Both the position numbers and the translations under genes were made by a program. From Candidatus Lokiarchaeum ossiferum (GTDB taxonomy: Archaea > Asgardarchaeota > Lokiarchaeia > Sigyniarchaeales > Promethearchaeaceae), in NCBI GenBank assembly GCA_025839675.1, contig CP104013.1, positions 2,430,001-2,462,000 on the forward strand: a DNA stretch of 32,000 nt, read 5' to 3'. Each line of letters opens with the position of its first letter. Position 1 is the first letter of the stretch. The notes under the pieces were generated by a model, which was given only the letters and a program-made list of their open reading frames with translations, made no database searches and was not told the DNA's origin. Shown here one piece after another: positions 1 through 24,242 of this stretch.

Positions 1-1
1 T

Positions 2-82
2 GAAGAGTTTGGATTCAAAGGGATGTTAGTCAAACCTTACACCATTGGTGAGCTGAAAGAAGTCTTGTTAAATGTGCTATAA
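2..82 (+). CDS. 3' end of a gene truncated by the window edge: C-terminal tail of a receiver (REC) domain protein
   Basis: The frame entering from the left edge reads EEFGFKGMLVKPYTIGELKEVLLNVL-stop. The K-P-Y-x3-L-x3-L pattern matches the last strand and helix of REC domains. It aligns with the C-terminus of the hybrid kinase at 24198-26963 (DILPKPYSLQKLREILSKIL). Confidence 0.5.
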   Translation, partial: EEFGFKGMLVKPYTIGELKEVLLNVL

Positions 83-105
83 AATAAAAAAAATTTTGAT
101 GAAAG

Positions 106-1107: not shown

Positions 1108-1263
1108 TTTTCCTCATCTTTTGAAGACAATTACAATAATTTGGGGTTATTCCTATAAAAGGAAATCTCTTACAATTTGTAATTTGTCGAGATAAATTAC
1201 TTTCAATTTAGAAATTTTCTTCTCAGAAATCAACCAAATAGGAAGTATAACCTTCAAAATCCC

Positions 1264-1860: not shown

Positions 1861-1926
1861 GATATATGAAAAAGGAGGTTTTAATTTGGAGCGAATGGAA
1901 CTATACAGTTCAAAAAGTGAAAAAAA

Positions 1927-3027
1927 TTAAAGACGACGCTTTATCCACCAACCAATGGCAGACAACCCAAGAATAGCACCACCTGTACCACCAAAGATGA
2001 TCCATCGACGTATATTTCGGGAAGTTATCCAAGGATCTTCTCGTGTTGGGATGATTTCAATAACTTGCTTAGGTGGATCATTAGATCCATCTTCAAAATA
2101 TAATTCTGTATCACCAAAAGATTCAATTATGACATTTAAATCAATGGGATAAAATTCAGTGCCCCCTTTCACCCACAATGAATATCTATGACCTCCGAGA
2201 CAATTAAACCAAAATCCGGTAGAATCATTTACAATTGTGAAGAAAGTTTGATCGGTCGTTTCTCCCTCATCATAATTTTCCCAGTCTTGAAGATATCCCG
2301 TAATTTGAGGTGTCGAATCCAAATAACTACCTTCTCCCACAAAACCTAAAAAAACTAAGGAATCTTCACCAGTGTTTTCAATCAGAAAATAATGTTCATA
2401 TAATGGAACATATTGATATTGTGCATAAGGAATATCAACAACTATACGGGAAGTGCCATCTCCAAGTAAGGCATAGAGTGAAGGGTCAGCATCCCCAAAG
2501 TATGTAATGGTTGTCAGATCTTCCTCATCCAGATCACCACCGGATATATCATATTTATCCGTATAAACAAAGTTTATTGGAGCTGGGGTCCAAAAAGTGA
2601 GGTTATAGGTGCAATCATCTACTGGATCCAAATTCGTTACGGCCAACACATACCGACTCTCCGCTTCACAGGTGAATTGGCACCGCACATAATAATCGAA
2701 ATTTGTTTCATTTTTGTTAATGCTTGCCATCCCCCCTTTAAAGTCATCCCAATTCCACAATTCGAGTTTTAATTCTGGCCACCCCGTTGAACCTACAAAT
2801 TCGAGTACTGTCGCATTGATTTGTAATGGATAAGAATTCGAACCTTGGTTCCAAATTGTAAAATATTCCGTATAATCGGCAGGTATTCCATCTGCATAGT
2901 AATCTAAAATATTTAGTTGAGAATTACTAGAGCCAATAAAAATATTTCCAAAAACTGAAGAGAGAACAAGAAAAAAACCTATATAAATTCGATTTCGTTG
3001 TTTGTTTTGATGTGAAAAATCACTCAT
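1927..3027 (-). CDS. Acidic secreted protein with N-terminal signal/anchor, two internally repeated beta-sandwich-like halves and a C-terminal TM anchor ending KRRL
   Basis: The N-terminal hydrophobic segment is IYIGFFLVLSSVFGNIFIGSS. The C-terminal segment is WIIFGGTGGAILGLSAIGWWIKRRL. The two halves align by eye (RYVLAVTNLD...YNLTFW versus RYSLWVKGG...IDLNVII), reminiscent of PPC-type pre-peptidase C-terminal domains. Function is unknown. Confidence 0.55.
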   Translation of the reverse strand: MSDFSHQNKQRNRIYIGFFLVLSSVFGNIFIGSSNSQLNILDYYADGIPADYTEYFTIWNQGSNSYPLQINATVLEFVGSTGWPELKLELWNWDDFKGGMASINKNETNFDYYVRCQFTCEAESRYVLAVTNLDPVDDCTYNLTFWTPAPINFVYTDKYDISGGDLDEEDLTTITYFGDADPSLYALLGDGTSRIVVDIPYAQYQYVPLYEHYFLIENTGEDSLVFLGFVGEGSYLDSTPQITGYLQDWENYDEGETTDQTFFTIVNDSTGFWFNCLGGHRYSLWVKGGTEFYPIDLNVIIESFGDTELYFEDGSNDPPKQVIEIIPTREDPWITSRNIRRWIIFGGTGGAILGLSAIGWWIKRRL

Positions 3028-3071
3028 AAAAAAAATATGGGAAAAACTCCTAACAATGTTTCGAGTTCAAA

Positions 3072-3638
3072 TCAAAATTGTTCATGATTTGCTTTCATCC
3101 AATCCCGCTTAAATATGGAATATATGTGAGTATCCACATATTCTCCATCAATATACCAATCTTCTTTCCGAGTTGCCTCTAAATGCATTCCTGCTTTAAC
3201 AGCTGATCTCTCAGAGCCGATATTCCAAGCAGAGATCCCTGCAAATATCTTATGAAGATTGACTTCTTCAAAGGCATATTTTAAAATTAATTTAATTGCT
3301 TCGGTAGCATACCCTTGTCCCCAATATTCTTTCTCTCCAATAAGTAAACCATATTCAGCGTTTCGATCATGATATTCAATATCACTCAGACCAATATCCC
3401 CGATTGGCTTTTGATCAACCTTATGCCAGATTTCAAATTTAATTCGGGAATCTGAGGCATTTACATTTTCAATTGCCTTTTGCATTCTTCCAATTGTGGT
3501 GGGTTTGATCATCCGAGATAGACGCCGAATCTCTAGATCATTATACCAATCTACATATATTTCAGCATGTGCAACTTTCAAGGGATGCAATTCTATTCTA
3601 TCCCCATTTATGAACGCAGGATGTGTTTTGCTTGTCAT
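3072..3638 (-). CDS. GNAT family N-acetyltransferase (RimJ/RimL-like)
   Basis: 188 aa. NAEYGLLIGEKEYWGQGYATEAIKLILKYAFEEVNLHKIFAGISAWNIGSERSAVKAGM matches the acetyl-CoA-binding core (Q/R-x-x-G-x-G/A) and overall layout of RimL-type GNATs. Confidence 0.85.
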   Translation of the reverse strand: MTSKTHPAFINGDRIELHPLKVAHAEIYVDWYNDLEIRRLSRMIKPTTIGRMQKAIENVNASDSRIKFEIWHKVDQKPIGDIGLSDIEYHDRNAEYGLLIGEKEYWGQGYATEAIKLILKYAFEEVNLHKIFAGISAWNIGSERSAVKAGMHLEATRKEDWYIDGEYVDTHIYSIFKRDWMKANHEQF

Positions 3639-3667
3639 ATGTATTCTTCAATTAAGGGAACAATAAA

Positions 3668-4492
3668 TTATTTTTGGCTTATTTCACGCAATATGGGTAT
3701 TTCAAGCGTGCAGTTAACACATTCTAATATCCCGATTCGAACGAGGTAATTCTGGATCATTAAGCACATTTCTCTATCAAACGATTCATAAAGCACCCGA
3801 TTGGTCTTATTTTGATCAAGATTATCTTTAAACAAAGCATAGAAGCGATCTAAACCTTTTTCAGCTTCTTCATCCAAATAATCTTGTACCATATGAGGTT
3901 TAAACAAGACTACAAAAAGAAGATCATTTTTTGTGGTGATACTCATCTCGATTTCCAACCCTTTCAAAGTAATGCGTTCAATTTTTCCCAAGTTTTCTTC
4001 TCCAAACATGGACAGAGCTGCAATGAATTGTGCAATTAGTTCGAGATTTATAGATTTATCAATTTGAACATAGTACAACAGATCTCCTCCAGATCGGCAT
4101 ATCCCCAAAGCTAAAATATATTCTTTCAACAATTTTTCTACCAGTTCATTTCGACAAAGACGAGGTAAGCTAATTTCCTTTTCAGATTTTGAGGATTTAG
4201 TCTCAATTTCTAAGACTTGATTAAGAAAATGACCTCTGATCCCATCTATACCAAAAAGATGCTTGTGAAAATATTGATGGGTCTTAGTAATATAAAGGAA
4301 TGGCAAGTAAAACTTACAATCATCTTCAATGCAGAATTCTGCAAGAAAATTTGGATCTTCCAATAAATTTTGATAAACAGCGGAATTTTCAATGGATTTT
4401 TCAGTATAGGAAATGTGATTTTGATTAAACCAATCTTTCAGCTGAAAACAGCGATTACAATCGGATTTAGTTATAATGTAGAAATCTTTCAC
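3668..4492 (-). CDS. Two-domain protein: N-terminal glutaredoxin/NrdH-like fold (CNRC) plus C-terminal roadblock/longin-like domain; putative GTPase partner 1
   Basis: The N-terminus FYIITKSDCNRCFQLKDWF...YLPFLYI...GIDGIRGHF fits the Grx pattern: beta1, CxxC, a cis-Pro strand and a GG-type turn. The C-terminal roughly 160 aa is a clear paralog of the ORF at 16304-16804, with shared blocks RSGGD-LY, FIAALSMFGEEN-GKI, LEIEMSI and YL-R-GIL. It is divergently adjacent to a small GTPase gene. Confidence 0.7.
   Translation of the reverse strand: MKDFYIITKSDCNRCFQLKDWFNQNHISYTEKSIENSAVYQNLLEDPNFLAEFCIEDDCKFYLPFLYITKTHQYFHKHLFGIDGIRGHFLNQVLEIETKSSKSEKEISLPRLCRNELVEKLLKEYILALGICRSGGDLLYYVQIDKSINLELIAQFIAALSMFGEENLGKIERITLKGLEIEMSITTKNDLLFVVLFKPHMVQDYLDEEAEKGLDRFYALFKDNLDQNKTNRVLYESFDREMCLMIQNYLVRIGILECVNCTLEIPILREISQK
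3671..4156 (-). other. Roadblock/longin-like domain, copy 1 (paralog of 16304-16804)
   Basis: The beta-beta-alpha-beta-beta pattern (ILALGICRSGGDLLYYVQ / ELIAQFIAALSMFGEE / IERITLKGLEIEMSITTKNDLLFVVLF) resembles Robl/LC7 (MglB-type) domains. Roughly half of aligned residues are identical to copy 2 by eye. Confidence 0.55.
4208..4492 (-). other. Glutaredoxin-like domain of the 3668-4492 protein (CxxC = C-N-R-C encoded at 4448-4459)
   Basis: The reverse complement of 4448-4459 reads TGT AAT CGC TGT. Position after the first beta-strand and the later LPF (cis-Pro-like) motif fit the thioredoxin fold. Confidence 0.55.
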
Positions 4493-4927: not shown

Positions 4928-5923
4928 ATGAAAGATCGGATGCTCCAAATTTTTTTAAACTCCGTAATGAAGACGCTAGACTCCCAACTCAATGCGATAC
5001 TGATCATGAATCGTGACGATAAGGTAGTTCTTCGAGTATTCAACAGTAATCTTCCTAAAAAAAAACAAGAAGAAATTGAATCCCTACTCTCATCCAACTT
5101 GACAAAAATTTCTTCTGAATTTGATGGGGATAAGGTTGGTACTTTTGCATTTGCAACGGAAAGTTATCGACTTGTATTTTGTGAAGCCGGATCAGAAGCA
5201 ATTCTTGTCTTTATTTCTCCTAAAATTACGACTCTGGAATATCTATTTTCCTATATTTACCTATGCGCCGAAAAAGTGGTTCGGATTAACTTGGGTAATA
5301 CTACGAGTTTCGTTCTTCCTCATCTCGAAGATTCTGAAGGTGAACATTCAAGTTCAAGTGAAATACAGAAAATTTCTCTTGATTCTGGAACGTTTATTAT
5401 GAAAGTTATTTTGGGGGGAGATTCGAGGGTAGGAAAAACAACTTTGGTTGAAAAATTCGTTAGTGACACATTTAAAGAAGATTTTAAAAGTACCATAGGA
5501 GTTAATCTAATGAAAAAAACCATATCCTATCGGAATTGGAACATCGATGTCACTTTCTCGGTATTTGACATGGGTGGTCAAGATCAATTTGCTCAAGTGA
5601 GACAATCATATTATCAAGGAGCACGTGCAGGATTCATTGTATTTGATGTTACAAGATACGATACATTCCAAAATATCGAAAAATGGTATAAAGAAATACG
5701 AGAAAACGAGCCCAATATCATGTTGTTGCTAGTTGGTAATAAAGTTGACTTGGTAAAGGAACGGAAGGTTTCGAAGACAGAAGGAAAAATTCTATCGAAA
5801 AAATTAGGTATGAAATACCTCGAAACATCCGCTCTAAACAAAGATTTTGTAGAAGAGGCATTTCGAACCTTAGGATTTTTCTATATTTTAAAAAATCGAG
5901 TGGTAAAAATCATCAATAAATAA
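4928..5923 (+). CDS. Roadblock/LC7-like N-terminal domain fused to a Ras/Rab-family small GTPase
   Basis: All five G motifs are present: G1 GGDSRVGKT, G2 T in KSTIGV, G3 DMGGQ, G4 GNKVD, G5 ETSAL. The N-terminal roughly 125 aa (LNAILIMNRDDKVVLRV...YRLVFCEAGSEAILVFISP) has a roadblock-like pattern. A Ser/Glu-rich linker follows. There is no C-terminal Cys prenylation motif (the protein ends VVKIINK). T(7) at 5938-5944 follows the stop. Confidence 0.85.
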   Translation: MKDRMLQIFLNSVMKTLDSQLNAILIMNRDDKVVLRVFNSNLPKKKQEEIESLLSSNLTKISSEFDGDKVGTFAFATESYRLVFCEAGSEAILVFISPKITTLEYLFSYIYLCAEKVVRINLGNTTSFVLPHLEDSEGEHSSSSEIQKISLDSGTFIMKVILGGDSRVGKTTLVEKFVSDTFKEDFKSTIGVNLMKKTISYRNWNIDVTFSVFDMGGQDQFAQVRQSYYQGARAGFIVFDVTRYDTFQNIEKWYKEIRENEPNIMLLLVGNKVDLVKERKVSKTEGKILSKKLGMKYLETSALNKDFVEEAFRTLGFFYILKNRVVKIINK

Positions 5924-10503: not shown

Positions 10504-10947
10504 TTATTTCTTTGTTTGAATTCGGAGAAGAATTGAATTCCAAAATGCATTCGTGAATTCAGGATCACTCAATTCTACTTTCCCAATTTTAACACGTGCT
10601 ATTTTAGGGAGAATTCCTTTTTGTGACAATTGAAGCTGCCTAATTGGTATTTCTTGACTATCCAATTTCATAGAGAGAGCCTCAAAGGGACATAATGCCA
10701 TACATACCCCACAAAAGACACATTTTGATTGATCTGGCATGATGGGCATCCGCGCAACTAAAGGCACTTTCATTCCTTTGGCAATCACGGGCATCTCCAA
10801 GGCATTTTTAGGACAAGCTTTCACACATTGTTTACAGGTTTTGCATTTATCCAGATGGAGAATTAAATCGGTTTTTCGGGTGAGATATTCCGAAGAAAAG
10901 GTCCGTGTCTTTATTTTTTCAGTAGTAGTAAGGATCGGCCATTTCAT
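10504..10947 (-). CDS. 2x[4Fe-4S] ferredoxin-domain protein, last gene of the hdr/mvhD operon
   Basis: Two CxxCxxCxxxCP motifs are present: CKTCKQCVKACP and CVFCGVCMALCP. Its start ATG overlaps the mvhD stop in an ATGA 4-nt overlap at 10944-10947, which suggests translational coupling. Confidence 0.8.
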   Translation of the reverse strand: MKWPILTTTEKIKTRTFSSEYLTRKTDLILHLDKCKTCKQCVKACPKNALEMPVIAKGMKVPLVARMPIMPDQSKCVFCGVCMALCPFEALSMKLDSQEIPIRQLQLSQKGILPKIARVKIGKVELSDPEFTNAFWNSILLRIQTKK

Positions 10948-11396
10948 GCTTGAATTTCCTCCATGTGATTTAATCGGGCGACTTCTTTTAAGGGATTCGG
11001 CCCGAGTGCTTTTAATTCATGGACATATTCTTTGATCCGTTCAGTAAATTCAGCTCCTTCACTAGCACTAATATGCCAGAGTTGTACTCGTTTCGGATTA
11101 ATACCATATTGTTCAATGAATTTTTGGATCAAGGCGAATCGCCTAACGGTTTTAAAATTTCCTTCAACGTAATGACAATCGCCTAAATGACATGCGCCAA
11201 TAATAACACCATCGGCTCCTTGTTTCAAAGCTTTAAGGGCGTAATCAGGATCCATTCTACCGGAACACATTAGTCGAATGATACGGACGTTTGCGGGACG
11301 TTGCATACGACTTCGTCCAGCTTGATCGCTTCCTGTATATGTGCACCAATTACAGAAGAATCCCACAATGTATGGTTCAAAGTTATCGTTTTCCAT
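10944..11396 (-). CDS. mvhD: MvhD/FlpD-like iron-sulfur subunit (methyl-viologen-reducing hydrogenase delta subunit family)
   Basis: FFCNWCTYTGSDQAG...RLMCSGR...GCHLGDCHY is the family signature. The ORF track starts at a TTG (11405). However, AGGAG at 11406-11410 abuts that codon and sits 9 nt from the ATG at 11396, so I prefer 11396. Confidence 0.8.
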   Translation of the reverse strand: MENDNFEPYIVGFFCNWCTYTGSDQAGRSRMQRPANVRIIRLMCSGRMDPDYALKALKQGADGVIIGACHLGDCHYVEGNFKTVRRFALIQKFIEQYGINPKRVQLWHISASEGAEFTERIKEYVHELKALGPNPLKEVARLNHMEEIQA

Positions 11397-11408
11397 GATG
11401 ACCAACTC

Positions 11409-13394
11409 CTAATTCGCCCCTCCTTCTCCGTGCACTTCCCACGGTTTAAGGGATTCCAATTCACTAAGGACTTGAGTTTTAGTAAAATGATTTTGGTCAA
11501 TGGCACTACTAGGACAGGTGATCATACAGACACCGCACCCTTTACAGCGGAGGGTATCTATCACCGATACATTTTTCTCTTCGTCAAATGAAATTGCATC
11601 AAAAGAACACACCGATAAACATGAACGACACCCGGAACATATTTCAGACCGCACTTCAGCATAGTAGGGTTCAATTTCCACCTCTCCCGCAGCCATGAAA
11701 TTGTCTGCACTGCTCGCAGCAGCTTTTGCTTGAGCGACAGCATCCGGAATATCACGAGGAGCTTGACAAGTACCACCTATGAAAACACCTTGGGAAAGCG
11801 AATCAACGGGGAATAATTTAGGATGGGCTTCCATAAACATCCCATCATCGGTTAATTGGACTCCAAACTTACGGCCCACATCACTGGCATCTTTCCGGGC
11901 TTCAATGGCTGTGGATAAAATAAGCATATCGACTTCGATTTCAAATTTTTCTCCCAAGAGAGTTTCACTACCCTCCAAGATCAAACTTCCATCTACTTTT
12001 TCAAACACGGATCCGATTCTTCCTCGAACAAAGTTAATGCCGTATTCACGAGCAGCAATTTCATAAAACTCTTCATATCCTTTCCCAAAAGCTCGGATAT
12101 CCATATAAAAAATGTAAACTTGGGAATCAGGATATTTTTCTTTATATTGACGGGCTTGTTTCATAGCATACATACAACATACTCGACTGCAATATTTGTG
12201 ACACCCCTCATGAAAATCACGCGAACCAACACATTGTAAGAATCCCACACTTTTTGGGGTCTGGTGATCTGAAGGTTTGATAACTTTCCCGAGAGTAGGC
12301 CCAGTGCTACTAAGGATCCGTTCAAATTCGATGGCAGTCAGAACATTTTTATATTTCTTGTAACCTAACCGCGCAATTCCACTGGGATCAAAAATATCAT
12401 TCCCGGTAGTTAAAATAATGGAACCAACTGTGAGATCGATTAATTCATCTTTTCGACTTAAATCAATAGCCCCAACTTCACAAGCTTGAACACAAAGCCC
12501 GCATTCAATACAGTTTTGGGAATCAATCGTGTATTGTTCTGGGACTGCCTGAGGAAATGGAATATACGCCGCGGCCCTATGACCCAAATTGAGATCAAAT
12601 TCATTAGGAATTGTGAGAGGACATGCTTGAGCACAAGCTCCGCAGCCCGTACAAATATTGCCATCAATTTTCGACGCTTTTCTTCTCACAGTTACTTTAA
12701 AATTGCCCACATTTAGATCCACGTCTTCAACTTCAGAATACGTTAGTAAATTGATATTTGGATGGCGACCAACTTCGACCATTTTTGGAGTAATAATACA
12801 CGCAGAACAATCCATGGTTGGAAATGTTTTATCCAGTTGGGCCATATGTCCTCCAATAGTGGGACTCCGCTCAACGAGATGTACTTTGTATTTATTGGTT
12901 AAATCTAAAGCTGCAAACATGCCCGAAATGCCTCCTCCCACAACCAAAGCTTCTTGAACCACAGGAAATTTTTGGCGTTCAAGGGGTTTGTTATGGGAGA
13001 CTTTTGCAATCGCCATTTTTAAATGATCCTTGGCGATGTCTAAAGCACCTGGATGATCATGCATATTTACCCAAGAAGCATGTTCACGAATATTCGCTTG
13101 TTCAAAGAAAAACTCATTGAATCCGTTTTTTTTCATCACGGTTCGATAAGTATCTTCATGCATTAAAGGACTACAAGCAGCCACAACCACCCTATTTACT
13201 TTTCCAGAGTTTAAATCATCGGCAATCATTTCTTGGCCGGCTGTACTGCACATAAATTTGTATTCTTTCACGAGAGATACATTTGCAAGTTGCGAAGCAT
13301 ATTCACATAGCGCATCAATATCCACGACATCGGAAATATTTTTTCCACAATGACACACATAAACTCCCACTTTGACATCATCTGAGTTGGACAA
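11409..13394 (-). CDS. hdrA: Heterodisulfide reductase subunit A (FAD plus multiple Fe-S clusters)
   Basis: 661 aa. It has an N-terminal Cys cluster (VCHCGKNIS), a dinucleotide fold (VVGGGISGMFAALDL), and four ferredoxin-type motifs (CTGCGACAQACP, CIECGLCVQACE, CSGCRSCLSVCS, CKGCGVCMITCP). It starts at TTG, preceded by GGAGGT 8 nt upstream inside the end of hdrB. Confidence 0.9.
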   Translation of the reverse strand: MSNSDDVKVGVYVCHCGKNISDVVDIDALCEYASQLANVSLVKEYKFMCSTAGQEMIADDLNSGKVNRVVVAACSPLMHEDTYRTVMKKNGFNEFFFEQANIREHASWVNMHDHPGALDIAKDHLKMAIAKVSHNKPLERQKFPVVQEALVVGGGISGMFAALDLTNKYKVHLVERSPTIGGHMAQLDKTFPTMDCSACIITPKMVEVGRHPNINLLTYSEVEDVDLNVGNFKVTVRRKASKIDGNICTGCGACAQACPLTIPNEFDLNLGHRAAAYIPFPQAVPEQYTIDSQNCIECGLCVQACEVGAIDLSRKDELIDLTVGSIILTTGNDIFDPSGIARLGYKKYKNVLTAIEFERILSSTGPTLGKVIKPSDHQTPKSVGFLQCVGSRDFHEGCHKYCSRVCCMYAMKQARQYKEKYPDSQVYIFYMDIRAFGKGYEEFYEIAAREYGINFVRGRIGSVFEKVDGSLILEGSETLLGEKFEIEVDMLILSTAIEARKDASDVGRKFGVQLTDDGMFMEAHPKLFPVDSLSQGVFIGGTCQAPRDIPDAVAQAKAAASSADNFMAAGEVEIEPYYAEVRSEICSGCRSCLSVCSFDAISFDEEKNVSVIDTLRCKGCGVCMITCPSSAIDQNHFTKTQVLSELESLKPWEVHGEGGAN

Positions 13395-13396
13395 AT

Positions 13397-14377
13397 TTAA
13401 TTACCTCCTTCAGTCAAGGGCATATTCTTGACTTTTTCTAATATTGGGTCTTGTGATGTGAAGGGTGAAATACCTTTCATGTCCGCAGGTTTTATCATCC
13501 CTAAACGTTCTGGTTCAATTCCCATGGCTAAACCAAGAAGTTGAGTAATATAGATTACAGGAATTTGGAATGGTACTTCTCCTTCATCCATTAAATTCGC
13601 TACTTCCAATTGTCCTAAATCATACTGCAATTGGCAAAATGGACAACATACCACAATGCAATCTGCCCCTGCCTTTCGAATTTCCCGTAATTTTTCCAAA
13701 GTTAAGTGGGAACTCACGGATTTATTGGCTGTCCGCACAGCTCCACCTGCCCCACAACACATCATCTTCTTACGATAAATGATGGAAGTAGCTCCAGTTG
13801 CTTCAACAATTTCATCAAAGAATGTGGGATCATCAGGATCTTGCCCAAAAACTTGAATTGCGGCGGGTTTTAAAATGTGACAGCCATAATGGACCGCAAC
13901 ATTCAGATTAAGCTTACGTTTTACCAAGGATTTGATTTTTTCAACACCGATATCATAATATAGGACATCCATGATGTGGCGAACTTTTGAAGTTCCGGTA
14001 TAAGTGCGACCCACAGATGATAGCACTTCATTAACGCGTCCTTTAAGTTCTTCATTATGCTTAAGTTGATGATCTACCTCATTTAAAGTTCCATTGCATC
14101 CATTACAAAGGGTGAGGAGATCATTATGATTTTGTTCAGCAATGTTAATATTCCGAGCCCCCACGGTGAGCCACATAGCTTTATCCACAGACCGAAAAAC
14201 GCCTGGAGCAGGGCAACAACTCGCACCTTCCATTTCATCTACTTTAATATTCAACTCATCAAACAAGGTGCGTGATGCGCGTTCAATCATAGGATACCTA
14301 TTAGGAATCACACAGCCCAAAAAGAGGGAATAATTCAATTCCTTTGAAGATTTATCTGATATTTTTTCACTTTCCAT
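13397..14377 (-). CDS. hdrB: Heterodisulfide reductase subunit B (two CCG domains)
   Basis: Two cysteine-rich CCG-type motifs are present: CCPAPG with CNGCNG, and CCGAGG with CCPFC. AAGGTGA lies 7 nt upstream of the ATG, directly after the hdrC stop. Confidence 0.9.
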   Translation of the reverse strand: MESEKISDKSSKELNYSLFLGCVIPNRYPMIERASRTLFDELNIKVDEMEGASCCPAPGVFRSVDKAMWLTVGARNINIAEQNHNDLLTLCNGCNGTLNEVDHQLKHNEELKGRVNEVLSSVGRTYTGTSKVRHIMDVLYYDIGVEKIKSLVKRKLNLNVAVHYGCHILKPAAIQVFGQDPDDPTFFDEIVEATGATSIIYRKKMMCCGAGGAVRTANKSVSSHLTLEKLREIRKAGADCIVVCCPFCQLQYDLGQLEVANLMDEGEVPFQIPVIYITQLLGLAMGIEPERLGMIKPADMKGISPFTSQDPILEKVKNMPLTEGGN

Positions 14378-14389
14378 TTTTAGGTCACC

Positions 14390-14920
14390 TTAAAGTTGAT
14401 AGGGAATCCTGCCGTTAAACTTGATTTTGTTGATTAGAGTATAGAGCTCATCCATTGCTTCTGGATAACTATGGACTGTTGGAGGTAGGGGGGGAAGATC
14501 CATTTTGATACGTAATTTGGCCCAAGTAGACAGTTCACCACCCAATGGTACAGCGTGACCATGCTGCACCAAATTTTTAATCACACCTTTCAATGGATCG
14601 GGAATATGACCTTCACGAACAGCCATATTGCGCAATTTTAGAATGATTTCGGTCACTGGAATCGTTCGTGGACAGCGTTCATAGCAATTAAAGCAGGTTG
14701 AACAAAGCCAAATATCATTACTTGACAGAACTGATTCTAAGCCAACGAGCGCTTGCCGCATAATTTTTCGTGTTTTCATAGCGGTCCAGTTACCTGAAGG
14801 GCAACCTGCAGAACACTCCCCACACTGGATGCATGCCCGAATTTTACTATGGGATTCTTCAATGGATAATTCTGTGAGAATATCAGGATTAAATTGTATT
14901 AAATTTTTATTTCGGCTCAT
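14390..14920 (-). CDS. hdrC: Heterodisulfide reductase subunit C (2x[4Fe-4S])
   Basis: CIQCGECSAGCP and CSTCFNCYERCP are present. The track ORF extends to a GTG at 14944. The ATG at 14920 (MSRNKNL...) follows a purine-rich GAAGGGAAGGAA and is preferred. Confidence 0.85.
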   Translation of the reverse strand: MSRNKNLIQFNPDILTELSIEESHSKIRACIQCGECSAGCPSGNWTAMKTRKIMRQALVGLESVLSSNDIWLCSTCFNCYERCPRTIPVTEIILKLRNMAVREGHIPDPLKGVIKNLVQHGHAVPLGGELSTWAKLRIKMDLPPLPPTVHSYPEAMDELYTLINKIKFNGRIPYQL

Positions 14921-14980
14921 TTCCTTCCCTTCATTATTAAACACCTTCGACGTAGGAAAGTTAGGGAAAACTTCAAATTC

Positions 14981-15051
14981 AAGTCACCCATTTTCACACG
15001 TGAAAACTGATAATTTGCTTTGGATGAACACCTTCTTAAATAAGTCACCCA
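14981..15051. promoter_or_regulatory. hdr leader/upstream element: exact 10-mer AAGTCACCCA twice (14981-14990, 15042-15051) flanking an inverted repeat TTTTCAC-ac-GTGAAAA (14991-15006, CACGTG core)
   Basis: Read directly from the sequence. In hdr orientation the decamer reads TGGGTGACTT and contains an SD-like GGTGA. Confidence 0.4.
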
Positions 15052-15255
15052 ACTGACAATATTATCACTAAACTTAGTATTTACAACTTAAGTTTATTGT
15101 TATTAGATCATTAAATAAGAATTGATTAATAAAATTTGTTCTGCACATTAATAAATACTCCAAACAATAGTAGGATTTGTAGGTAAAAAAAAAGACAAAT
15201 TGATCCAAAATTCCACTAATTCAGAACATTTATCAATTCTTTTTGAATTAATTAG

Positions 15256-15268
15256 ATATATAAAAAAA
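15256..15268 (+). promoter_or_regulatory. A/T-rich TATA-like box upstream of GTPase gene 2
   Basis: atatataaaaaaa lies about 60 nt upstream of the ATG at 15328. This is the typical composition of an archaeal TATA box. Confidence 0.4.
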
Positions 15269-15306
15269 TACTTTAGGTTGAGTTATCGTAGATGATACCT
15301 AAAGTA
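15269..15306. promoter_or_regulatory. Perfect 10-bp inverted repeat TACTTTAGGT-N18-ACCTAAAGTA abutting the TATA-like box
   Basis: The arms are 15269-15278 and 15297-15306 and are exact reverse complements. The element lies between the A/T box and the start codon of the GcvH-like GTPase gene. Confidence 0.45.
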
Positions 15307-15327
15307 TAATTTTTGAGATGCGAAATT

Positions 15328-16281
15328 ATGGTCACAATTGCAGATGGACGGTTTAGTCTACCGGATAATCTTCTATATACGAAAAATCAACATGTATATT
15401 TGAATAATGATAAAAAAACACTCGGATTAGATGAGATTGGTTATGCCTTCTTGCACAATCCAAATGAATTGAAAATTTTAGTTGAGGATGAAGTGAAAAT
15501 AGGGATTCCTTTCGCAGCAATTACCACAGATTCAGGAATGACAACATTGAATTCTCCATGCTCAGGAAAAATTAAGCAATTAAATCCTAACGCACTTGCC
15601 TCAATGAAAGATCATACCTATGAAACAGGATTTATCATTGAATTGGAAGAGATCACCGAAGTCCAACCAAATTTGGTAACGGGGTCTGAATTGCAAGAAT
15701 GGGGAAATAATGAAGTCAAAACTTTAGTCCGAAACAATTATTCCTTCAAGATCATTGAAATTGGCGATTCGGCAGTAGGAAAAACCGCAATAAAAGTGCG
15801 TTTTACTGATAACTATTTTAAAAAGGATCTAAAAACAACCTTAGGAGTGGATTTTGGTTCCAAAGAAATCAAGGGAGAGTATATTAGCAGCGATATTTTG
15901 TTCTCGGGCACTTATCGTTTCACGGCCAAAATGAATGTTTGGGATGCAGCCGGACAGGCCATGTATGACAAAATTCGAGGTATGTACTATCGAGATGCAA
16001 AGGGTGCACTTATGTGTTATGATGTACACAATCATTTATCCTTTGAACATTTAGAGAAGTGGCGAGAAGAGCTAGAAGAGAGTTTGGGAAAAGTACCTGT
16101 CCTTCTCGTTGGAAATAAGATTGATCTGGAACGAAAGGTCACCCGTCAAGAAGGTTTAGCTTATGCGATGAAGCATAATTACCTTTTTGTTGAGTGTTCT
16201 GCCAAAACAGGTGAAGGTGTTGATGACATGTTTAAACAGCTCGCCGTAGAGATATTCAAGCGGGAAGAAAAATTAGAGTAA
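15328..16281 (+). CDS. GcvH-like (glycine-cleavage H fold, no lipoyl lysine) N-terminal domain fused to a Rab-like small GTPase
   Basis: GTPase motifs: G1 GDSAVGKT, G2 TTLGVDF, G3 WDAAGQ, G4 GNKID, G5 CSAKTG. The N-terminal roughly 125 aa aligns by eye to GcvH: LLYTKNQHVY versus YSKEHEW, SPCSGKIKQLNPNAL versus APVSGEIVAVNDAL, and ETGFIIELE versus GGWIFKIK. The track start (TTG at 15313) is probably an extension, and the ATG at 15328 is preferred. There is no C-terminal Cys. Confidence 0.85.
   Translation: MVTIADGRFSLPDNLLYTKNQHVYLNNDKKTLGLDEIGYAFLHNPNELKILVEDEVKIGIPFAAITTDSGMTTLNSPCSGKIKQLNPNALASMKDHTYETGFIIELEEITEVQPNLVTGSELQEWGNNEVKTLVRNNYSFKIIEIGDSAVGKTAIKVRFTDNYFKKDLKTTLGVDFGSKEIKGEYISSDILFSGTYRFTAKMNVWDAAGQAMYDKIRGMYYRDAKGALMCYDVHNHLSFEHLEKWREELEESLGKVPVLLVGNKIDLERKVTRQEGLAYAMKHNYLFVECSAKTGEGVDDMFKQLAVEIFKREEKLE
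15346..15696 (+). other. GcvH-like hybrid-barrel domain; the position equivalent to the lipoyl lysine is Ser (codon 15532-15534)
   Basis: Counting 8 residues upstream of the conserved P in P-x-S-G gives ITTDSGMTTLNSP against E. coli AESVKAASDIYAP. This places D-S-G where V-K-A lies. Confidence 0.55.
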
Positions 16282-16303: not shown

Positions 16304-16804
16304 GTGGTGAACGAGCTAATTTTTGAGCGATTTAAATCGAATAATTTAACCGACAGTCAGTGCCAGCTTGTTCAAAAAATTTTAAAGCACTATATTTTAG
16401 GAATTTTCATTTCTCGTTCTGGGGGGGATATTCTATATGATTTTCAGCTTGATGAAAGCATCAAGATTGATCTTATCTCCCACTTTATCGCAGCTCTTTC
16501 TATGTTCGGGGAAGAAAATGTAGGAAAAATCAAACGAATTTTCATTGAAGGACTAGATATTGAGATGAGTATTGTTCAGAAACACGATCTGGTAAGTGTT
16601 ACTTTTTTCCGTCCCAATATGGTCAAGGATTACCTAGAAGCGGAATCAAGTAAAGGATTAGATCTGTTTTACAATATGTTCGAAGAATCTATCAAAGCAG
16701 GCAAAAATAATAAAGCCATTTATGAAGGATTTGACGATCCTATGTGCCATTTGATTCAAGAATATTTGCAAAGATTAGGTATTTTAAAGGATAAAGAAAA
16801 ATAA
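16304..16804 (+). CDS. Roadblock/longin-like protein, putative GTPase partner 2 (paralog of the C-terminal domain of 3668-4492)
   Basis: 166 aa. It has a GTG start with AGGTGA (16292-16297) 6 nt upstream, only 22 nt after the GTPase stop, so it is likely co-transcribed. Shared blocks with the 3668-4492 protein are ISRSGGDILY, FIAALSMFGEENVGKI, LDIEMSI, KDYLE, KGLD-FY and QEYLQRLGIL. Confidence 0.7.
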   Translation: MVNELIFERFKSNNLTDSQCQLVQKILKHYILGIFISRSGGDILYDFQLDESIKIDLISHFIAALSMFGEENVGKIKRIFIEGLDIEMSIVQKHDLVSVTFFRPNMVKDYLEAESSKGLDLFYNMFEESIKAGKNNKAIYEGFDDPMCHLIQEYLQRLGILKDKEK

Positions 16805-17450: not shown

Positions 17451-18170
17451 ATGAAGGTCTCGAAATTCCAAATTTGGTTCATGGATCATCTCGAACGTTT
17501 GCAGAATCAACATGTAGAAATTCGACAATTAATAGTGGAGTTACTTTCCTTAACAAAAAAAGCAAATACAAATAAAAATGCAGAGGAAATTGCACTTATT
17601 TTAGGAAGAATTTCGGGACGATTCAAATTGAACCATACTATGGAAAGCAAGAGTGTTTACCAATACCTAATGGATTCTCATGACACGCAAAAAATGAAAA
17701 TTGCGAAGACATTTTTAAGTGAAATGGAGAATTTAATGACCGAATTTGCCCAATATCGAAAAAATTATCGATTAAGTTATGATATTAAAGCCAATATGCC
17801 ACAATTTAAGAAAATCAGCGAAATTATTTTTCGGAAGATTGAAATCCGATTAAATCAAGAAGATAATACTTTATATCCCTTGGTTGATGAAGAGAAACTT
17901 GATATGAAAATACATAATGCAATCCAATCAACAAAAAGGATTGGACAACATGGAACACCTAAACGGGAGATTTTTCCCGAAAATGAAGAAGACTATCAAA
18001 AGATAGAACTCACTCAAGAACAACTAAAACTCGAGCAACCCATTCGTATTTCATTAGTAAATTCAAAGATTTCGTCAAATCCAATAAAAAAAAACGCAGT
18101 GAATGAATTTATGGAAGAATTGAAAGAAATTGACAGAAAAGATTCCGAAAAAACAAAAACAAATAAGTAA
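17451..18170 (+). CDS. Helical protein with weak hemerythrin/HHE-like features and a Lys/Glu-rich tail
   Basis: DH..L....H..I at the N-terminus, NHTMESKSVYQYL (H-x2-E...Y..L) and RLNQEDNTLYPLV (E-D-x-x-L-Y-P) resemble HHE cation-binding repeats. Several expected His residues are missing, so the call is weak. Confidence 0.35.
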   Translation: MKVSKFQIWFMDHLERLQNQHVEIRQLIVELLSLTKKANTNKNAEEIALILGRISGRFKLNHTMESKSVYQYLMDSHDTQKMKIAKTFLSEMENLMTEFAQYRKNYRLSYDIKANMPQFKKISEIIFRKIEIRLNQEDNTLYPLVDEEKLDMKIHNAIQSTKRIGQHGTPKREIFPENEEDYQKIELTQEQLKLEQPIRISLVNSKISSNPIKKNAVNEFMEELKEIDRKDSEKTKTNK

Positions 18171-19690: not shown

Positions 19691-20581
19691 ATGATAACTA
19701 TGGATCACCTTGAACGACTTGAAAATAAAAGTATACACATAATGCGAGAAGCCTATAATCAATTTAAAAATCTGGGAATGCTCTGGTCAATTGGTAAAGA
19801 TTCGACAGTTCTTCTCTGGTTAGCCCGAAAGGCCTTCTTTGGACATGTCCCTTTCCCGCTTGTACACATTGATACAGGTTATAAAATTCCTGAAATGATC
19901 GAGCATCGGGATCGATTAGCAAAAGAGTGGAATCTCGATATGGTCTATGGACAAAACCGAACAGCATTAAATGAAAAGCAAACCTTTCCAGATGGGACAA
20001 CAACCCATTTAGATTGTTGTAAACTCCTAAAAACCCAAGCATTAGAAAATACTTTGAATGGAAAATGGCCCAGATACCGCATGAACCATAAGAAATCTCA
20101 ATATGAAATCGATTCAAACAATGAAGCCTTCGAGGGAATCATTGTAGGAGTGAGAGCCGATGAAGAAGGCAGCCGCTCCAAAGAACGGTATTTCTCCCCA
20201 CGGAATACACACAATGACTGGATCATTGAAGATCAACCTCCAGAATTTTGGAACCAATATAAAACAGACTTCCACCCGGGAACTCATATCAGAGTCCATC
20301 CTCTTTTAGATTGGACCGAGTTAGACATATGGGAATATATAGAACGAGAGAATATACCAATGGTTTCCCTTTATTTTGACAAGGGGGAAGGGAAAAGATA
20401 TCGATCCTTGGGTTGTTGGCCATGTACTAAGCCTGTAGATTCCCACGCAGCCAACGTTCATCAAATTATTGCTGAATTGAAAACAGGTAAGTTTGTAAAT
20501 ATTGCTGAAAGGGACGGTCGGGCCCAAGATAAAGAAGATGGCGGCGGTTTGGAAGTTTTACGCCGCGATGGGTATATGTAA
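19691..20581 (+). CDS. cysD: Sulfate adenylyltransferase subunit 2
   Basis: [16 protein letters not shown] is present, with a PP-loop-type [12 protein letters not shown], and C-terminal [11 protein letters not shown] followed by [10 protein letters not shown]. This is typical of CysD. Confidence 0.9.
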
Positions 20582-20594
20582 CTGAGGAATAGAA

Positions 20595-22445
20595 ATGACA
20601 CAACCATATATTGACACTAATTACACCGAAAATACAAAGGATCTAGAAGAAGAAATAAGTGATCGCATGAATATTGCGATTGTAGGTCATGTAGATCATG
20701 GAAAAAGTACAATCATTGGTAGATTGCTCGCAGATACCAAATCATTACCTCAAGGAAAGCTAGAACAAATAAAGGAGCGATGTAAAAGGAATTCTAAGCC
20801 GTTTGAATATTCATTCTTACTGGATGCTTTAAAGGACGAACAAGCGCAAGGTATCACAATAGATACAGCACGGGTTTTTTTCAATAGTGAAAAAAGAAAA
20901 TACATCATTTTAGACACCCCTGGACATATAGAATTCCTTCGAAATGTCGTAACGGGTGCATCTCGCGCCGAAGCAGCATTGCTAATTATAGATGCCCATG
21001 AAGGAATTCAAGAAAACTCCAAACGTTATTGCTACATGATTTCTCTCTTAGGAATTAAAAAGATTTCCATAGTTGTTAACAAAATGGATCTGATTGATTA
21101 CTCTGAAACAAAGTTCCTTAATATTGTTCACGAATATCAACAATTCTTAGATAAAATTCAAGTCACTCCTTTAAGTTTCATACCAGTAAGTGGAAAATTG
21201 GGTGACAATGTTGCATCTAATTCTGAGAATATTCCATGGTACAAAGGACCTTCCATCCTATCCCAATTAGATATGTTTATAGGGGAAAAAATTCCTGAAG
21301 ATCAAAATTTCCGAATGTCTGTGCAAGATGTGTACAAATTTACAGAAAATAATGATAAACGAAGAATTGTTGCAGGAACTATCGAATCAGGAGCTATTTC
21401 AGTAGGTGAGGAGGTAGTGTTTCTTCCCTCAGGAAAAACGAGTAAAATTCAAAGTATTGAGGGATTCAACACTTCTACAAAAAAAACTATAACAGCCGGT
21501 TATGCTACAGGTTTTACGATTGCCGATCATCTTTATATTAAAAGAGGTCAAATTATGGCTCGATCGGATCAAAATCAACCCCATGTAGCAAATAATATTG
21601 TTGTTGATCTATTTTGGTTAGGAAAATTACCGCTCCAGTATGAAAAAGAATACTTTATAAAGATAGGTGCTCAAAAAGTGCCTTTTACCCTCCAAAAAAT
21701 TCGTAGAGTTATAGATGCAACCAATTTGAATTTTGAAGAAAAGCCAGAAATTCATAGAAATGAAGTTGCAGAGTGTGAATTTTTGTTAAAAGAACCGATC
21801 GCATTTGATTTAACTCATGAATTGTTATTAACCAGTCGTTTCGTTATCGTGGATGATTTCGAAATAGCAGGTGGAGGGATAATCTCCGACATCATTAACA
21901 ATTCAACAGAAAAAACCAAAAAAACGAATGAAAATCTAAGTTTTGCATGGGAACGAAGTAGGATTGGTATGGATGATCGTGCAGAGCGATATAATCAAAA
22001 ATCAAGCTTGATATTAATAACTGGAGGCAAAGAAAGCCGAAAGAAGGAGATAGCCAAAGCACTTGAAAAAGAACTGTTTTCTCAAGGCAAATTTGTTTAT
22101 CATATGGGAATAGGACATTTGCTTTATGGATTAGATGAAAGTGTTAGATTGAATACAATTAATAATACTGACAACCACATCAGCAGACTTGCGGAAATTG
22201 CCAATATTATGTTAGATTCTGGCTGTATTTTAATTGTTACTGCAAGATCATTGAACCAATCAGACCTAGAACTCTTAAGAAAAACACTAATTGTGCCCGA
22301 AAAATTGATTAGTGTGTGGATAGGTAATGTGGTTTTTACTGATATCAAGGTAGATTACCATCTATTTAACTTCCAGCGGATTAAACGGGGAGTAAAAAGG
22401 TTAAAACAAATCTTGCAAGACAAAGGAATTATTTTCAAAATATAA
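20595..22445 (+). CDS. cysN: Sulfate adenylyltransferase subunit 1 (GTPase) fused to a degenerate APS-kinase-like C-terminal domain
   Basis: G1 is [10 protein letters not shown]3 is DTPGH and G4 is NKMD. GAGGA lies 6 nt upstream of the ATG, 13 nt after the cysD stop. The C-terminal roughly 170 aa is homologous to CysC, but the Walker A and DGD motifs are not conserved (see finding). Confidence 0.9.
21942..22445 (+). other. APS-kinase-like domain with a non-canonical P-loop
   Basis: [22 protein letters not shown] aligns with Cys[34 protein letters not shown] aligns with [18 protein letters not shown] aligns with LTAFISP. Overall collinearity with E. coli CysC is clear, while the catalytic motifs are substituted. 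Confidence 0.6.
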
Positions 22446-22448
22446 GTC

Positions 22449-22458
22449 TTTTTTTTTT
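22449..22458 (+). terminator. T(10) tract between cysN and cysH (possible terminator or attenuation point)
   Basis: The T run starts 4 nt after the cysN stop and ends 11 nt before the cysH ATG. Confidence 0.3.
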
Positions 22459-22469
22459 GATAAAATAGG

Positions 22470-23285
22470 ATGCAACCAAATATGTCAACAGAAAAAACTC
22501 AATACGCTCTAAATTTATTAGAATCAGCATTTATTAATACAAAACCACGAGGTGTAGGATGTTCTTTTGGGAAAGATAGTGTTACCGCTGTTCATTTAGC
22601 ACGACGAATCGATCCAAATATTCCTGTATTTTCGATTATGACAATTTTCAAACCTAAAGAGACTTTTGAATATTTAGTGGAAATCAACCGTCTTCTGAAT
22701 TTAGATGTCTTGGTATATATGGTAGCCGAACGGGTTCCACAAATATTAATTGATAATGGAATAAAAGTGGAATTATTATCTCCAGATAATTTTCGAGAAG
22801 CTCAAGGAACTCATGAGAATTTCTTACATACTGAAGATGTTGACCGATGTTGTCATCTCCTCAAAGTGGTTCCGATTCAAAAAGCAGTGGCGAATTATGA
22901 CGTATTGATCGATGGACTTCGAAGTTCAGAAGGAATCACTCGTCAAAATTTGCAAGAAATTGAAATAACTGGAGACCTAACAAAAATTCATCCAATTCTC
23001 CACTTTACAGAAGAAGATATATTTGAATATCTCAAAAAAAATGACATCCCTATTCATCCATGGTATTTGAAAACGTTTCCAGATGGGAAACGTTATCGAT
23101 CTTTAGGTTGTGCCCCTTGTACACGACCAATTTTTGATCATGAATCAGAACGCGATGGGCGGTGGCAAGGAAGTAAAAAAGAAGGCGGTGAATGCGGAAT
23201 ACACACAAATCAAATTAAACCTTCAAAACAGAATATCCCCCTTCAAAAAACTTTTGTGATGGAAAAACAGGATTATAATTGCTAG
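22470..23285 (+). CDS. cysH: Phosphoadenosine/adenosine phosphosulfate reductase family, Fe-S (APS reductase-type) variant
   Basis: It has a PP-loop-like CSFGKDSVTAVHL and the C-terminal catalytic motif ECGIH. It also carries the CC (DRCCHL) plus CxxC (LGCAPCT) cysteines that ligate the [4Fe-4S] cluster in assimilatory APS reductases. These are absent from E. coli-type PAPS reductase. Confidence 0.8.
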   Translation: MQPNMSTEKTQYALNLLESAFINTKPRGVGCSFGKDSVTAVHLARRIDPNIPVFSIMTIFKPKETFEYLVEINRLLNLDVLVYMVAERVPQILIDNGIKVELLSPDNFREAQGTHENFLHTEDVDRCCHLLKVVPIQKAVANYDVLIDGLRSSEGITRQNLQEIEITGDLTKIHPILHFTEEDIFEYLKKNDIPIHPWYLKTFPDGKRYRSLGCAPCTRPIFDHESERDGRWQGSKKEGGECGIHTNQIKPSKQNIPLQKTFVMEKQDYNC

Positions 23286-23363
23286 TTTCTTTATAACCCC
23301 TTTATGTCATCATGATTGATCAATTTTTCCAAATGTTGAATTTAATGAGAAAAGCTAAGTAAA

Positions 23364-24242
23364 ATGATGCTATCGCTTGCAGAATTGTCAACCATGACAT
23401 TTATGGGTATTCTATTAATGATTTTTTTAGGATTTTTCATAGGTATTATTACTTCAATAAGTGGAATTGGCGGAGGGGCCATAATTATGCCGTTTCTTCT
23501 TTTAATTTTAAATATGGATCATAATTATGCAAAAGGAACAAGTTTATTTTTAATCCTACTTAGTTCCGGAATCGCGACATTATATAACATAAAACAAAAA
23601 AAGATATCAATTTCCATTATCCTATTCACATCATTCTTTGGAATTTTAGGCAGTATTTCTTGTTTTATCTTCCAAAAATACTTGATTATTGAAGAACGGA
23701 TTTTTTTTATTTTATTTGGACTTTTTGAAGTAATTATGGCATTCCGAATGATTTTCAAAGCCAAATTAGAGTTAAAAAACATTTCCAAAAGTAGTATTAC
23801 TCTAGATCCATCAATTGACAAGTCCATTTCACCATCCAATTCCATCTTAAAGATTGAACATAACTCATTCTGGACAAATAAGAGAGTTTTTCGCGCATCG
23901 CCATTCTTTTTTGTAACGGGATTTCTCACCACGTTTTTTGGAATAGGAGGAGGTCCAATAACAACCCCTGTATTTCATGAAATACTACATATGCCAATTA
24001 CAAGTGCGATTGCTTCTTCAAGTGCAATGATTTTCGTCAATTCGATAATTAATGTCATCTATTATGGAATTCAGGGAGAAATTCAATGGGTATTTGGAGT
24101 AATAATTGGGATAGGAATGATGGTAGGCTCTTATACAGGGGTTTTCCTATCAAATCATATTTCAAAATCTATGGTCTATTTTCTAATTGGGATCTTGCTA
24201 GGAATTCTGGGCACGGTTATGATCATTGGTTTCTTTGTTTAA
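23364..24242 (+). CDS. TauE/SafE-family anion (sulfite/sulfonate) exporter-like membrane protein
   Basis: Two homologous halves each begin with the G-I-G-G-G motif (SISGIGGGAIIMPFL and TFFGIGGGPITTPVF). They are separated by a hydrophilic loop, with about 8 TM helices in total. Confidence 0.75.
   Translation: MMLSLAELSTMTFMGILLMIFLGFFIGIITSISGIGGGAIIMPFLLLILNMDHNYAKGTSLFLILLSSGIATLYNIKQKKISISIILFTSFFGILGSISCFIFQKYLIIEERIFFILFGLFEVIMAFRMIFKAKLELKNISKSSITLDPSIDKSISPSNSILKIEHNSFWTNKRVFRASPFFFVTGFLTTFFGIGGGPITTPVFHEILHMPITSAIASSSAMIFVNSIINVIYYGIQGEIQWVFGVIIGIGMMVGSYTGVFLSNHISKSMVYFLIGILLGILGTVMIIGFFV

Follow-up and report, generated by a model that had tools for sequence, protein, structure and literature searches.

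Dozens of small GTPases resembling those of eukaryotes are found in Asgard archaea, and to our knowledge a regulator or target is known for almost none of them. MvhADG-HdrABC is the sole hydrogenase of Promethearchaeum syntrophicum MK-D1, and the thiol/disulfide pair it handles has been drawn as XSH/X-S-S-X, its identity not being known (Imachi et al. 2020, PMC7015854). Proteins with the fold of the glycine-cleavage H-protein (GcvH) have been met beside heterodisulfide reductase (Hdr) genes elsewhere. LbpA is the lipoate-binding GcvH-fold protein of sulfur-oxidising Hdr-like (sHdr) systems (Cao et al. 2018, PMC6067878), and in Culexarchaeia a GcvH gene lies in an Hdr/hydrogenase cluster and has been proposed to coordinate a disulfide-containing moiety (PMC9723716). 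Here we describe NEF87_002033 of Candidatus Lokiarchaeum ossiferum B-35, a gene that encodes a Rab-like GTPase fused to what profile comparison and modelling indicate is a degenerate H-protein fold, and that adjoins an hdr gene block. It lies in a stretch of 32,000 nt (contig CP104013.1, positions 2,430,001 to 2,462,000), called the window below, whose own numbering is used for coordinates.

LbpA resembles the protein studied here in being a GcvH-fold protein encoded by Hdr-type genes, and it gives a precedent for an H-protein fold with HdrB-like subunits. The first-pass annotation of this DNA drew on that precedent, and the analogy breaks down at its defining features. LbpA keeps and needs its lipoyl lysine, whereas NEF87_002033 has Ser69; the sHdr set is hdrC1B1A-hyp-hdrC2B2, whereas the window has hdrC-hdrB-hdrA(661 aa)-mvhD-fdx, fdx being a ferredoxin gene; and dedicated lipoate ligase/LipS and TusA/DsrE genes accompany sHdr, whereas no lipoate ligase, lipoate synthase, or sulfur-relay or sulfur-transferase gene was found in a Pfam scan of nearly all open reading frames (ORFs) of at least 120 amino acids (aa) in the 32-kb window. 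The same scan gave no match to gcvT, gcvP or lpd near NEF87_002033. The Culexarchaeia case is alike in being a non-methanogenic archaeon whose Hdr disulfide partner is not known and in having a GcvH gene in an hdr neighbourhood, but the gene there stands alone, whereas the domain of NEF87_002033 is fused to a GTPase and is predicted not to be lipoylatable at the canonical site.

By exact-sequence match NEF87_002033 is UYP45748.1, annotated in databases as 'hypothetical protein' or 'Rab family GTPase'. We take ATG 15328 as the start codon because all homologues begin MV(T/F/S)IADGR. The gene and its parts are as follows.

15328..16281, plus strand: gene NEF87_002033, H-protein-like domain and Rab-like GTPase, 317 aa (from the ORF and homologue starts)
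15328..15732, plus strand: predicted N-terminal H-protein (GcvH) fold, residues 1-135 (from Pfam/NCBIfam, profile, hhalign, AlphaFold and Foldseek)
15532..15534, plus strand: codon of Ser69, at the hairpin-tip position of the GcvH lipoyl lysine (from HMMER, hhalign and the AlphaFold hairpin)
15739..16281, plus strand: Rab-like small GTPase domain, residues 138-317 (from Pfam Ras, PDB relatives and G motifs)
15763-15786, plus strand: G1, GDSAVGKT (motif position)
15838-15855, plus strand: G2, TLGVDF (motif position)
15940-15957, plus strand: G3, WDAAGQ (motif position)
16111-16128, plus strand: G4, GNKIDL (motif position)
16195-16209, plus strand: G5, CSAKT (motif position)

An exhaustive HMMER search of 1.84 billion representatives with the N-terminal domain returned 17 relatives, most of which join the N-domain to Ras in a protein of 312-323 aa or are pieces of such a protein; the GcvH-Rab family is therefore small. 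A word-index protein search with the same domain found one relative only. The family alignment and profile (A1) hold 13 of the 17, and the wider sequence sample comprises about 30 relatives, several from one genus. For gene neighbourhoods, 26 related loci (L numbers below) were gathered with a four-sequence alignment as query, from scans of one genome per species, Joint Genome Institute (JGI) metagenomes and exact-protein matches; many of the metagenome contigs among them are short.

The GcvH-like domain had been called at 15346-15696 in the first-pass annotation, and that range falls inside the fold as now delimited. As a single sequence, NEF87_002033 scores E=0.01 against Pfam GCV_H (16.2 bits, under the 22.2-bit cutoff) and E=6e-4 against the NCBIfam model GcvH_rel_desulf ('GcvH-related protein'); its NCBIfam NF045810 score of 19.5 bits, against a cutoff of 150, does not reach the curated threshold. 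Despite this weak score we consider the call correct, because the profile, hhalign and AlphaFold/Foldseek agree. The A1 profile matches solved H-proteins over residues 11-128 with E of about 1e-4 in HMMER. The family aligned by hhalign to a small GcvH alignment, of which the E. coli row was entered by hand and the other three rows were retrieved sequences, with 98.2% probability and E=4.9e-14. An AlphaFold model of the domain built on A1 has a mean predicted local distance difference test score (pLDDT) of 86.7, and its top 22 Foldseek matches in the PDB are all H-proteins, with template-modelling (TM) scores of 0.5-0.75. With canonical GcvH (PF01597) the domain shares the fold and the core motifs Y-T-K-x-x-H, G-L/I-D/T, P-C/V-S-G-x-I-x-x-x-N and D-x-Y-x-x-G-F/W; it differs in its sub-threshold Pfam score, its fusion to a GTPase, its lack of the lipoyl lysine and an additional conserved N-terminal strand, MVxIAxGR. 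The C-terminal helix of the fold (119-135) runs almost straight into the GTPase, where Pfam Ras begins at residue 141. The N-terminal domain is under purifying selection and evolves faster than the GTPase (55% vs 79% identity between L. ossiferum and MK-D1).

Ser69 stands where canonical GcvH has its lipoyl lysine, as had been proposed for the serine of codon 15532-15534 and as three alignments and the modelled hairpin now confirm. It lies eight residues before Pro77 of the PCSG motif, which is the spacing of the lipoyl lysine in canonical GcvH. It shares a column with the lysine of M. tuberculosis GcvH in the HMMER alignment, pairs with K63 of canonical GcvH in hhalign and, with D68, forms the turn between strands 61-67 and 70-75 of the AlphaFold model. 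The earlier pairing of ESVKAAS with TDSGMTT thus named the right residue and codon, although its heptad was one position out of register and should read TTDSGMT. Classical lipoylation, already doubted in the earlier annotation, is very unlikely because Ser occupies the lipoyl position.

The tip residue is also variable across the family, being S, Q, A, N, R, H or K in about 30 relatives. Among the orthologues linked to hdr it is S (the window), A, Q (seven loci), K or N, and since it differs among such close relatives the position appears unconstrained; other members have S, N, R, K, H, Q or A. In the family alignment no lysine is invariant or near-invariant anywhere in the domain. A variable tip and the want of any conserved lysine argue, so far as the sequences indicate, against a lipoyl- or biotinyl-carrier role for the GcvH-Rab family taken as a whole. 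The TDKG tips met now and then have the look of relics of an ancestral lipoyl domain or of neutral variants. The domain would then be a clear case of an H-protein fold put to other use once its cofactor site was lost. By alignment and model, the N-terminal domain of NEF87_002033 is a degenerate H-protein fold without the lipoyl-attachment lysine.

Three substitute sites were considered and rejected. K81 and K83, the nearby lysines of SGKIK that the first-pass annotation had singled out as a possible displaced lipoyl site, lie inside strand 78-85, and lysine is found there also in lysine-keeping canonical GcvH (APCNGKV). Cys78 of PC[ST]G, as a new thiol site, has its counterpart in the APCNG of canonical GcvH with a true lipoyl lysine. 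Ser69 in 'DSG', as a phosphopantetheine-type site, is not kept in close orthologues, which have S, Q, A, K or N there.

Separately, an unrelated 289-aa protein (P0016, at 446-1315 of L018) has a Cys-rich N-terminal region joined to a GcvH domain in which, by hand count from its SPVNG motif, the lipoyl position holds Met, not Lys. It matches the NCBIfam 'not_gcvH' and 'GcvH-related' models under their cutoffs, and its contig is short and uninformative as a wider precedent for a lysine-less H-protein fold. Such folds may be commoner among anaerobes than is usually noted.

The GTPase half of the protein is typically Rab-like. Pfam Ras covers residues 141-309 at 1.7e-46, and among solved structures the top match is Thorarchaeota Rab 7ezb (1.2e-34), which the GTPase core resembles, followed by Rab11, Rab2 and Rab18. 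Motifs G1-G5 are all intact, including the catalytic switch II Gln (DxxGQ), and the domain is predicted from them to be catalytically complete. There is no C-terminal prenylation Cys: the protein ends FKREEKLE and has Cys at 78, 230 and 290 only.

The fusion itself has been seen before. MK-D1, with its 74 small GTPases (PMC10933270), has an orthologue of NEF87_002033, WP_147662223.1 (69% identical), which carries the label 'GCVHG', as does its paralogue WP_147661646.1, in the supplementary alignment of Tran et al. 2024 (PMC10933270); the GcvH-GTPase fusion must therefore already have been noticed. In the parts of that work available to us the label stands alone, with no mention of lysine loss, a roadblock neighbour or hdr linkage. 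Nor did the literature searched yield any description of these three features, and the protein accessions had no match in its main texts.

Directly 3′ of the GTPase gene is a second conserved gene, the most obvious functional partner, which the first-pass annotation overlooked.

16304..16804, plus strand: NEF87_002034, predicted roadblock/longin fold, 166 aa, candidate GTPase-activating protein (GAP) or guanine-nucleotide exchange factor (GEF) (from AlphaFold and Foldseek, and conserved adjacency)

This gene escapes sequence-based annotation. NEF87_002034 and two orthologues match no Pfam family at E<=1, Robl_LC7 and longin included, and comparison with PDB sequences, by profile as well, gave no meaningful match. 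The family has 68 homologues, and all those with an organism name come from Promethearchaeota. A model built on an alignment of the database homologues has a pLDDT of 86.1 and an alpha-beta-beta-alpha-beta-beta-beta-alpha topology. Foldseek matched it to MK-D1 Roadblock2/3, LAMTOR, MglB and the Mon1-Ccz1 longin with probabilities of 0.97-1.00; the TM scores are modest (0.3-0.6) and the match list is consistent. The roadblock/longin fold is used by small-GTPase GAPs and GEFs (MglB, Ragulator, Mon1-Ccz1). A profile of the family finds a copy beside GcvH-Rab in the window and in L001-L005, L012, L015, L022, L023 and L025; the roadblock gene is sometimes duplicated, and it accompanies GcvH-Rab even where hdr is absent (L012, L025). 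Genes for a GTPase and its GAP or GEF are arranged in this way, and NEF87_002034, judged by its modelled fold, is likely the cognate regulator of the upstream GTPase. The pair is like MglA-MglB, Rag-Ragulator and Ypt7-Mon1/Ccz1 in that a Ras-superfamily GTPase gene adjoins a roadblock/longin-fold gene, and unlike them in that the NEF87_002034 family lacks Pfam Robl_LC7 similarity and has extra N- and C-terminal helices.

According to the parts of Tran et al. 2024 available to us (PMC10933270), MK-D1 GTPase genes are generally not in operons with roadblock or longin genes, and the scarcity of operon links hampers the matching of GTPases to GAPs and GEFs. The pair described here is an exception to that rule; its MK-D1 roadblock member, WP_147662222.1, is absent from the accessible portion of their supplement.

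The module is prone to duplication. Tandem roadblock-fold copies occur in two Promethearchaeum metagenome-assembled genomes (MAGs; L003 10962-12009, L004 6875-7910), and metagenome contigs carry GcvH-Rab/roadblock/GcvH-Rab arrays (L023, L025). On one contig three GcvH-Rab copies accompany a roadblock gene, and on others there are two copies in divergent orientation (L012 2846-6393; L001/L019). The window itself holds a second GTPase module 10 kb upstream (3668-4492, minus strand, and 4928-5923, plus strand). There NEF87_002023, a 331-aa Rab-like GTPase whose N-terminal extension of about 158 aa looks roadblock-like by eye, is divergently paired with NEF87_002021, a 274-aa paralogue of the roadblock-fold partner. 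The extra N-terminal region of NEF87_002021 contains a CxxC motif, and the match to glutaredoxin is weak (E=0.17). Members of the partner family may as a rule be paired with a GTPase.

On its other side NEF87_002033 adjoins an hdr operon, as the earlier annotation had stated: hdrC-hdrB-hdrA-mvhD-fdx lies directly upstream on the minus strand.

14390..14944, minus strand: hdrC, two [4Fe-4S] motifs, probable start ATG 14920 (from the ORF, domain scan and orthologue alignment)
13397..14377, minus strand: hdrB, two CCG domains (Pfam CCG 4.6e-33, two stretches)
11409..13394, minus strand: hdrA, 661 aa, FAD/NAD-binding and several 4Fe-4S domains (from the domain scan)
10944..11405, minus strand: mvhD, FlpD family (Pfam FlpD 1.3e-47)
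10504..10947, minus strand: fdx, 2x[4Fe-4S] ferredoxin, last gene of the hdr block (from the domain scan)
14921..15327, no strand: AT-rich divergent spacer between hdrC and the GTPase gene (from ORF bounds and the repeat search)

The earlier annotation had suggested asking whether orthologues keep this neighbourhood. Within one orthologous group they do: the GcvH-Rab/roadblock pair abuts hdrCBA-mvhD-fdx in 11 loci of Lokiarchaeum and Promethearchaeum. The hdr-linked proteins form one clade in a neighbour-joining tree, joined by L001a, whose contig is too short to give a neighbourhood. The arrangement is divergent, with the hdr block inverted, in the window and in the Lokiarchaeal part of L015, and co-directional in L002-L005, L017 and L020-L023. 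MK-D1 and three Promethearchaeum MAGs (L002-L005) have hdrC-hdrB-hdrA-mvhD-fdx, GcvH-Rab and the roadblock gene on a single strand; the part covered by L020-L023 and L017, also co-directional, starts at hdrA, mvhD or fdx only. In Promethearchaeum fdx is directly upstream of GcvH-Rab, with a gap of 47-50 bp and a conserved GGAG before the ATG. Co-regulation through a shared divergent region, as earlier suggested for the window, is hence not general, given this co-directional spacing and a terminator-like hairpin in L017 (below).

Average amino-acid identity between L. ossiferum and MK-D1 is 58.4%, and gene order has been extensively reshuffled between them (PMC9834061); NEF87_002033 and its MK-D1 orthologue, at 69%, are above that average, and the two hdrA proteins are 75% identical. 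The other window genes have 0 matches within 10 kb of the MK-D1 locus. As the outer flanks differ and the genomes are rearranged, the hdr association has outlived the surrounding synteny. It is lineage-specific yet cross-genus.

Two observations concern the loci compared. A second, divergent hdrCBA set, about 41% identical, lies 3-4 kb upstream of the linked hdr block in P. syntrophicum and a related MAG (L005 1-2485; L003 185-1619, minus strand); the window ORFs that were examined include no such set. L015 (1-12538) looks chimeric: bases 1-4200, at about 40% GC, carry Lokiarchaeal hdrA/B/C, a frameshifted GcvH-Rab and a roadblock gene, and the remainder, at 60-69% GC, carries bacterial-type GGDEF and Reg_prop.

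We tentatively favour, with a little less than even confidence, the reading that NEF87_002033 is a GTPase switch bearing a cofactor-less docking domain and acting on the Hdr/Mvh complex. The H-protein fold would have been reused as a protein-protein docking or targeting module, its old lipoyl site carrying no prosthetic group, and would deliver the GTPase to a partner able to recognise a surface of the H-protein type, while the roadblock-fold protein would control whether GTP or GDP is bound. Conserved gene linkage makes the most likely partner either HdrABC-MvhD(-hydrogenase) itself or a protein that works on the Hdr thiol/disulfide substrate, and physical coupling of the GTPase to Hdr/MvhD is plausible. 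The module may in this way gate the assembly, location or activity of the central H2-handling complex. A bolder form, in which a Rab/roadblock switch is physically wired to electron-bifurcating MvhADG-HdrABC through a pseudo-H-protein domain that mimics a lipoyl-protein substrate but bears no cofactor, its GTP state controlling the H2/thiol redox engine or the placement of that engine, we consider unlikely.

If this bolder form is true, a small GTPase of Asgard archaea would for the first time have a defined effector, which would be a metabolic enzyme instead of a membrane-trafficking machine. The locus offers a concrete conserved trio, namely a Rab-like GTPase whose carrier domain is disabled, a roadblock-fold protein encoded beside it and Hdr/MvhD genes, and it singles out an energy enzyme, Hdr, as a target of an Asgard GTPase switch that can be put to the test. 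Both cultured Lokiarchaeia examined, L. ossiferum and P. syntrophicum MK-D1, carry the trio, so that experiments on interaction, GTPase function and modification are feasible.

Several observations weigh against a functional tie to hdr and suit a different account, in which the adjacency is a historical accident and the protein a lineage-specific Asgard GTPase switch on an unrelated target, with the H-fold as a generic dimerisation, auto-inhibitory or adaptor domain. A second Promethearchaeum paralogue (L006; L007/L013/L014) lies in unrelated neighbourhoods, distant members at 31-46% identity (L008, L011, L012) are not hdr-adjacent, and tandem or multi-copy arrays of the module occur without hdr (L001/L019, L012, L025). 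In L017 the spacer between fdx and the GTPase gene (221-349, 127 nt) has a GC-rich hairpin followed by T8, which resembles a terminator; this locus represents the Lys-tip lineage (P0002), and the hairpin is absent from the 47-50-bp Promethearchaeum spacers. Together with the divergent genes of the window, it indicates that co-transcription is not required. Adjacency would also persist without selection if the hdr block had inverted where it stands, and with GTPases so numerous in Asgard archaea, as the MK-D1 count illustrates, some chance adjacencies are to be expected. Against this account stand the persistence of the adjacency in 11 loci, in two orientations and across distant, rearranged genera with differing outer flanks, and the tight spacing in Promethearchaeum. 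We regard an accident of this kind as possible, if doubtful.

It is very improbable that the GTPase serves to mature or assemble the Hdr/Mvh metalloenzyme, its H-fold holding a client subunit, by analogy with nucleotide-dependent metallocentre chaperones. Known metallocentre GTPases belong to other classes (HypB/UreG/CooC are SIMIBI, HydF is Era-like), whereas the protein here appears to be a typical Rab-like switch with a roadblock-fold partner. It has no conserved metal-binding Cys/His motif and three Cys in all, and the second hdrCBA set near the MK-D1 locus is without such a partner. Linkage to an Fe-S-rich enzyme would fit a maturation role, as would a weak NCBIfam HydF similarity (E=0.04, far under cutoff).

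Also very improbable is a swinging-arm carrier with a thiol cofactor (lipoate or other) at another residue or at the Lys tips, the protein itself being the X-S-S-X substrate of Hdr, the role that LbpA has for sHdr: the LbpA and Culexarchaeia precedents, an Hdr substrate in MK-D1 that is not known, the Lys tip in an E2-like TDKG context of a few members (P0002/L017, which is fdx-linked; P0004; P0013) and the presence of Cys78 in 20 of the 22 family sequences compared all speak for it, but the tip varies among close hdr-linked orthologues, the domain has no conserved lysine, K81 and Cys78 are no new functional sites, the window lacks the lipoate and sulfur-relay genes sought, and MK-D1 is predicted to rely on partners for lipoate. 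Loss of the lysine thus sets NEF87_002033 aside as a lipoyl-type disulfide substrate of Lokiarchaeal Hdr.

The spacer between hdrC and NEF87_002033 had been given as a 384-bp control region at 14945-15327. The divergent spacer is real, but that interval is 383 bp long, and the hdrC ORF as called opens at GTG 14944, whereas ATG 14920 (Met9) fits the orthologue alignments (about 176-178 residues) better; as the latter is more probably the start, the spacer is about 407 bp. It contains an exact 10-nt direct repeat, AAGTCACCCA, in two copies (14981-14990 and 15042-15051, 61 bp apart), and a 17-nt inverted repeat (15262-15278/15297-15313, 88% complementary) that ends 14 nt before ATG 15328. These could be operator or 5′ untranslated region elements. 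Alignment with the L015 equivalent showed no convincing conserved element. A sigma-70 promoter and terminator scan of the spacer was discarded as not meaningful for an archaeon, and promoter inference in AT-rich archaeal DNA is unreliable.

Further downstream, two genes past the roadblock gene, the window encodes a hemerythrin-domain protein of 239 aa (17451-18170, plus strand; Pfam Hemerythrin 1.2e-6), which could be an O2 or redox sensor or an iron-binding protein; the gene is not conserved at the MK-D1 locus. A sulfate-assimilation cluster follows at 19691-24242 (plus strand), 3.4 kb downstream of the GTPase module. For a related Asgard archaeon, a 2025 preprint has proposed a coupling of Hdr and hydrogenase to sulfite/thiosulfate reduction, with TauE export. 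The cluster in the window encodes a CysD-like PAPS_reduct protein, a CysN-type GTPase-APS kinase fusion, a second PAPS-reductase-domain protein and a TauE sulfite exporter.

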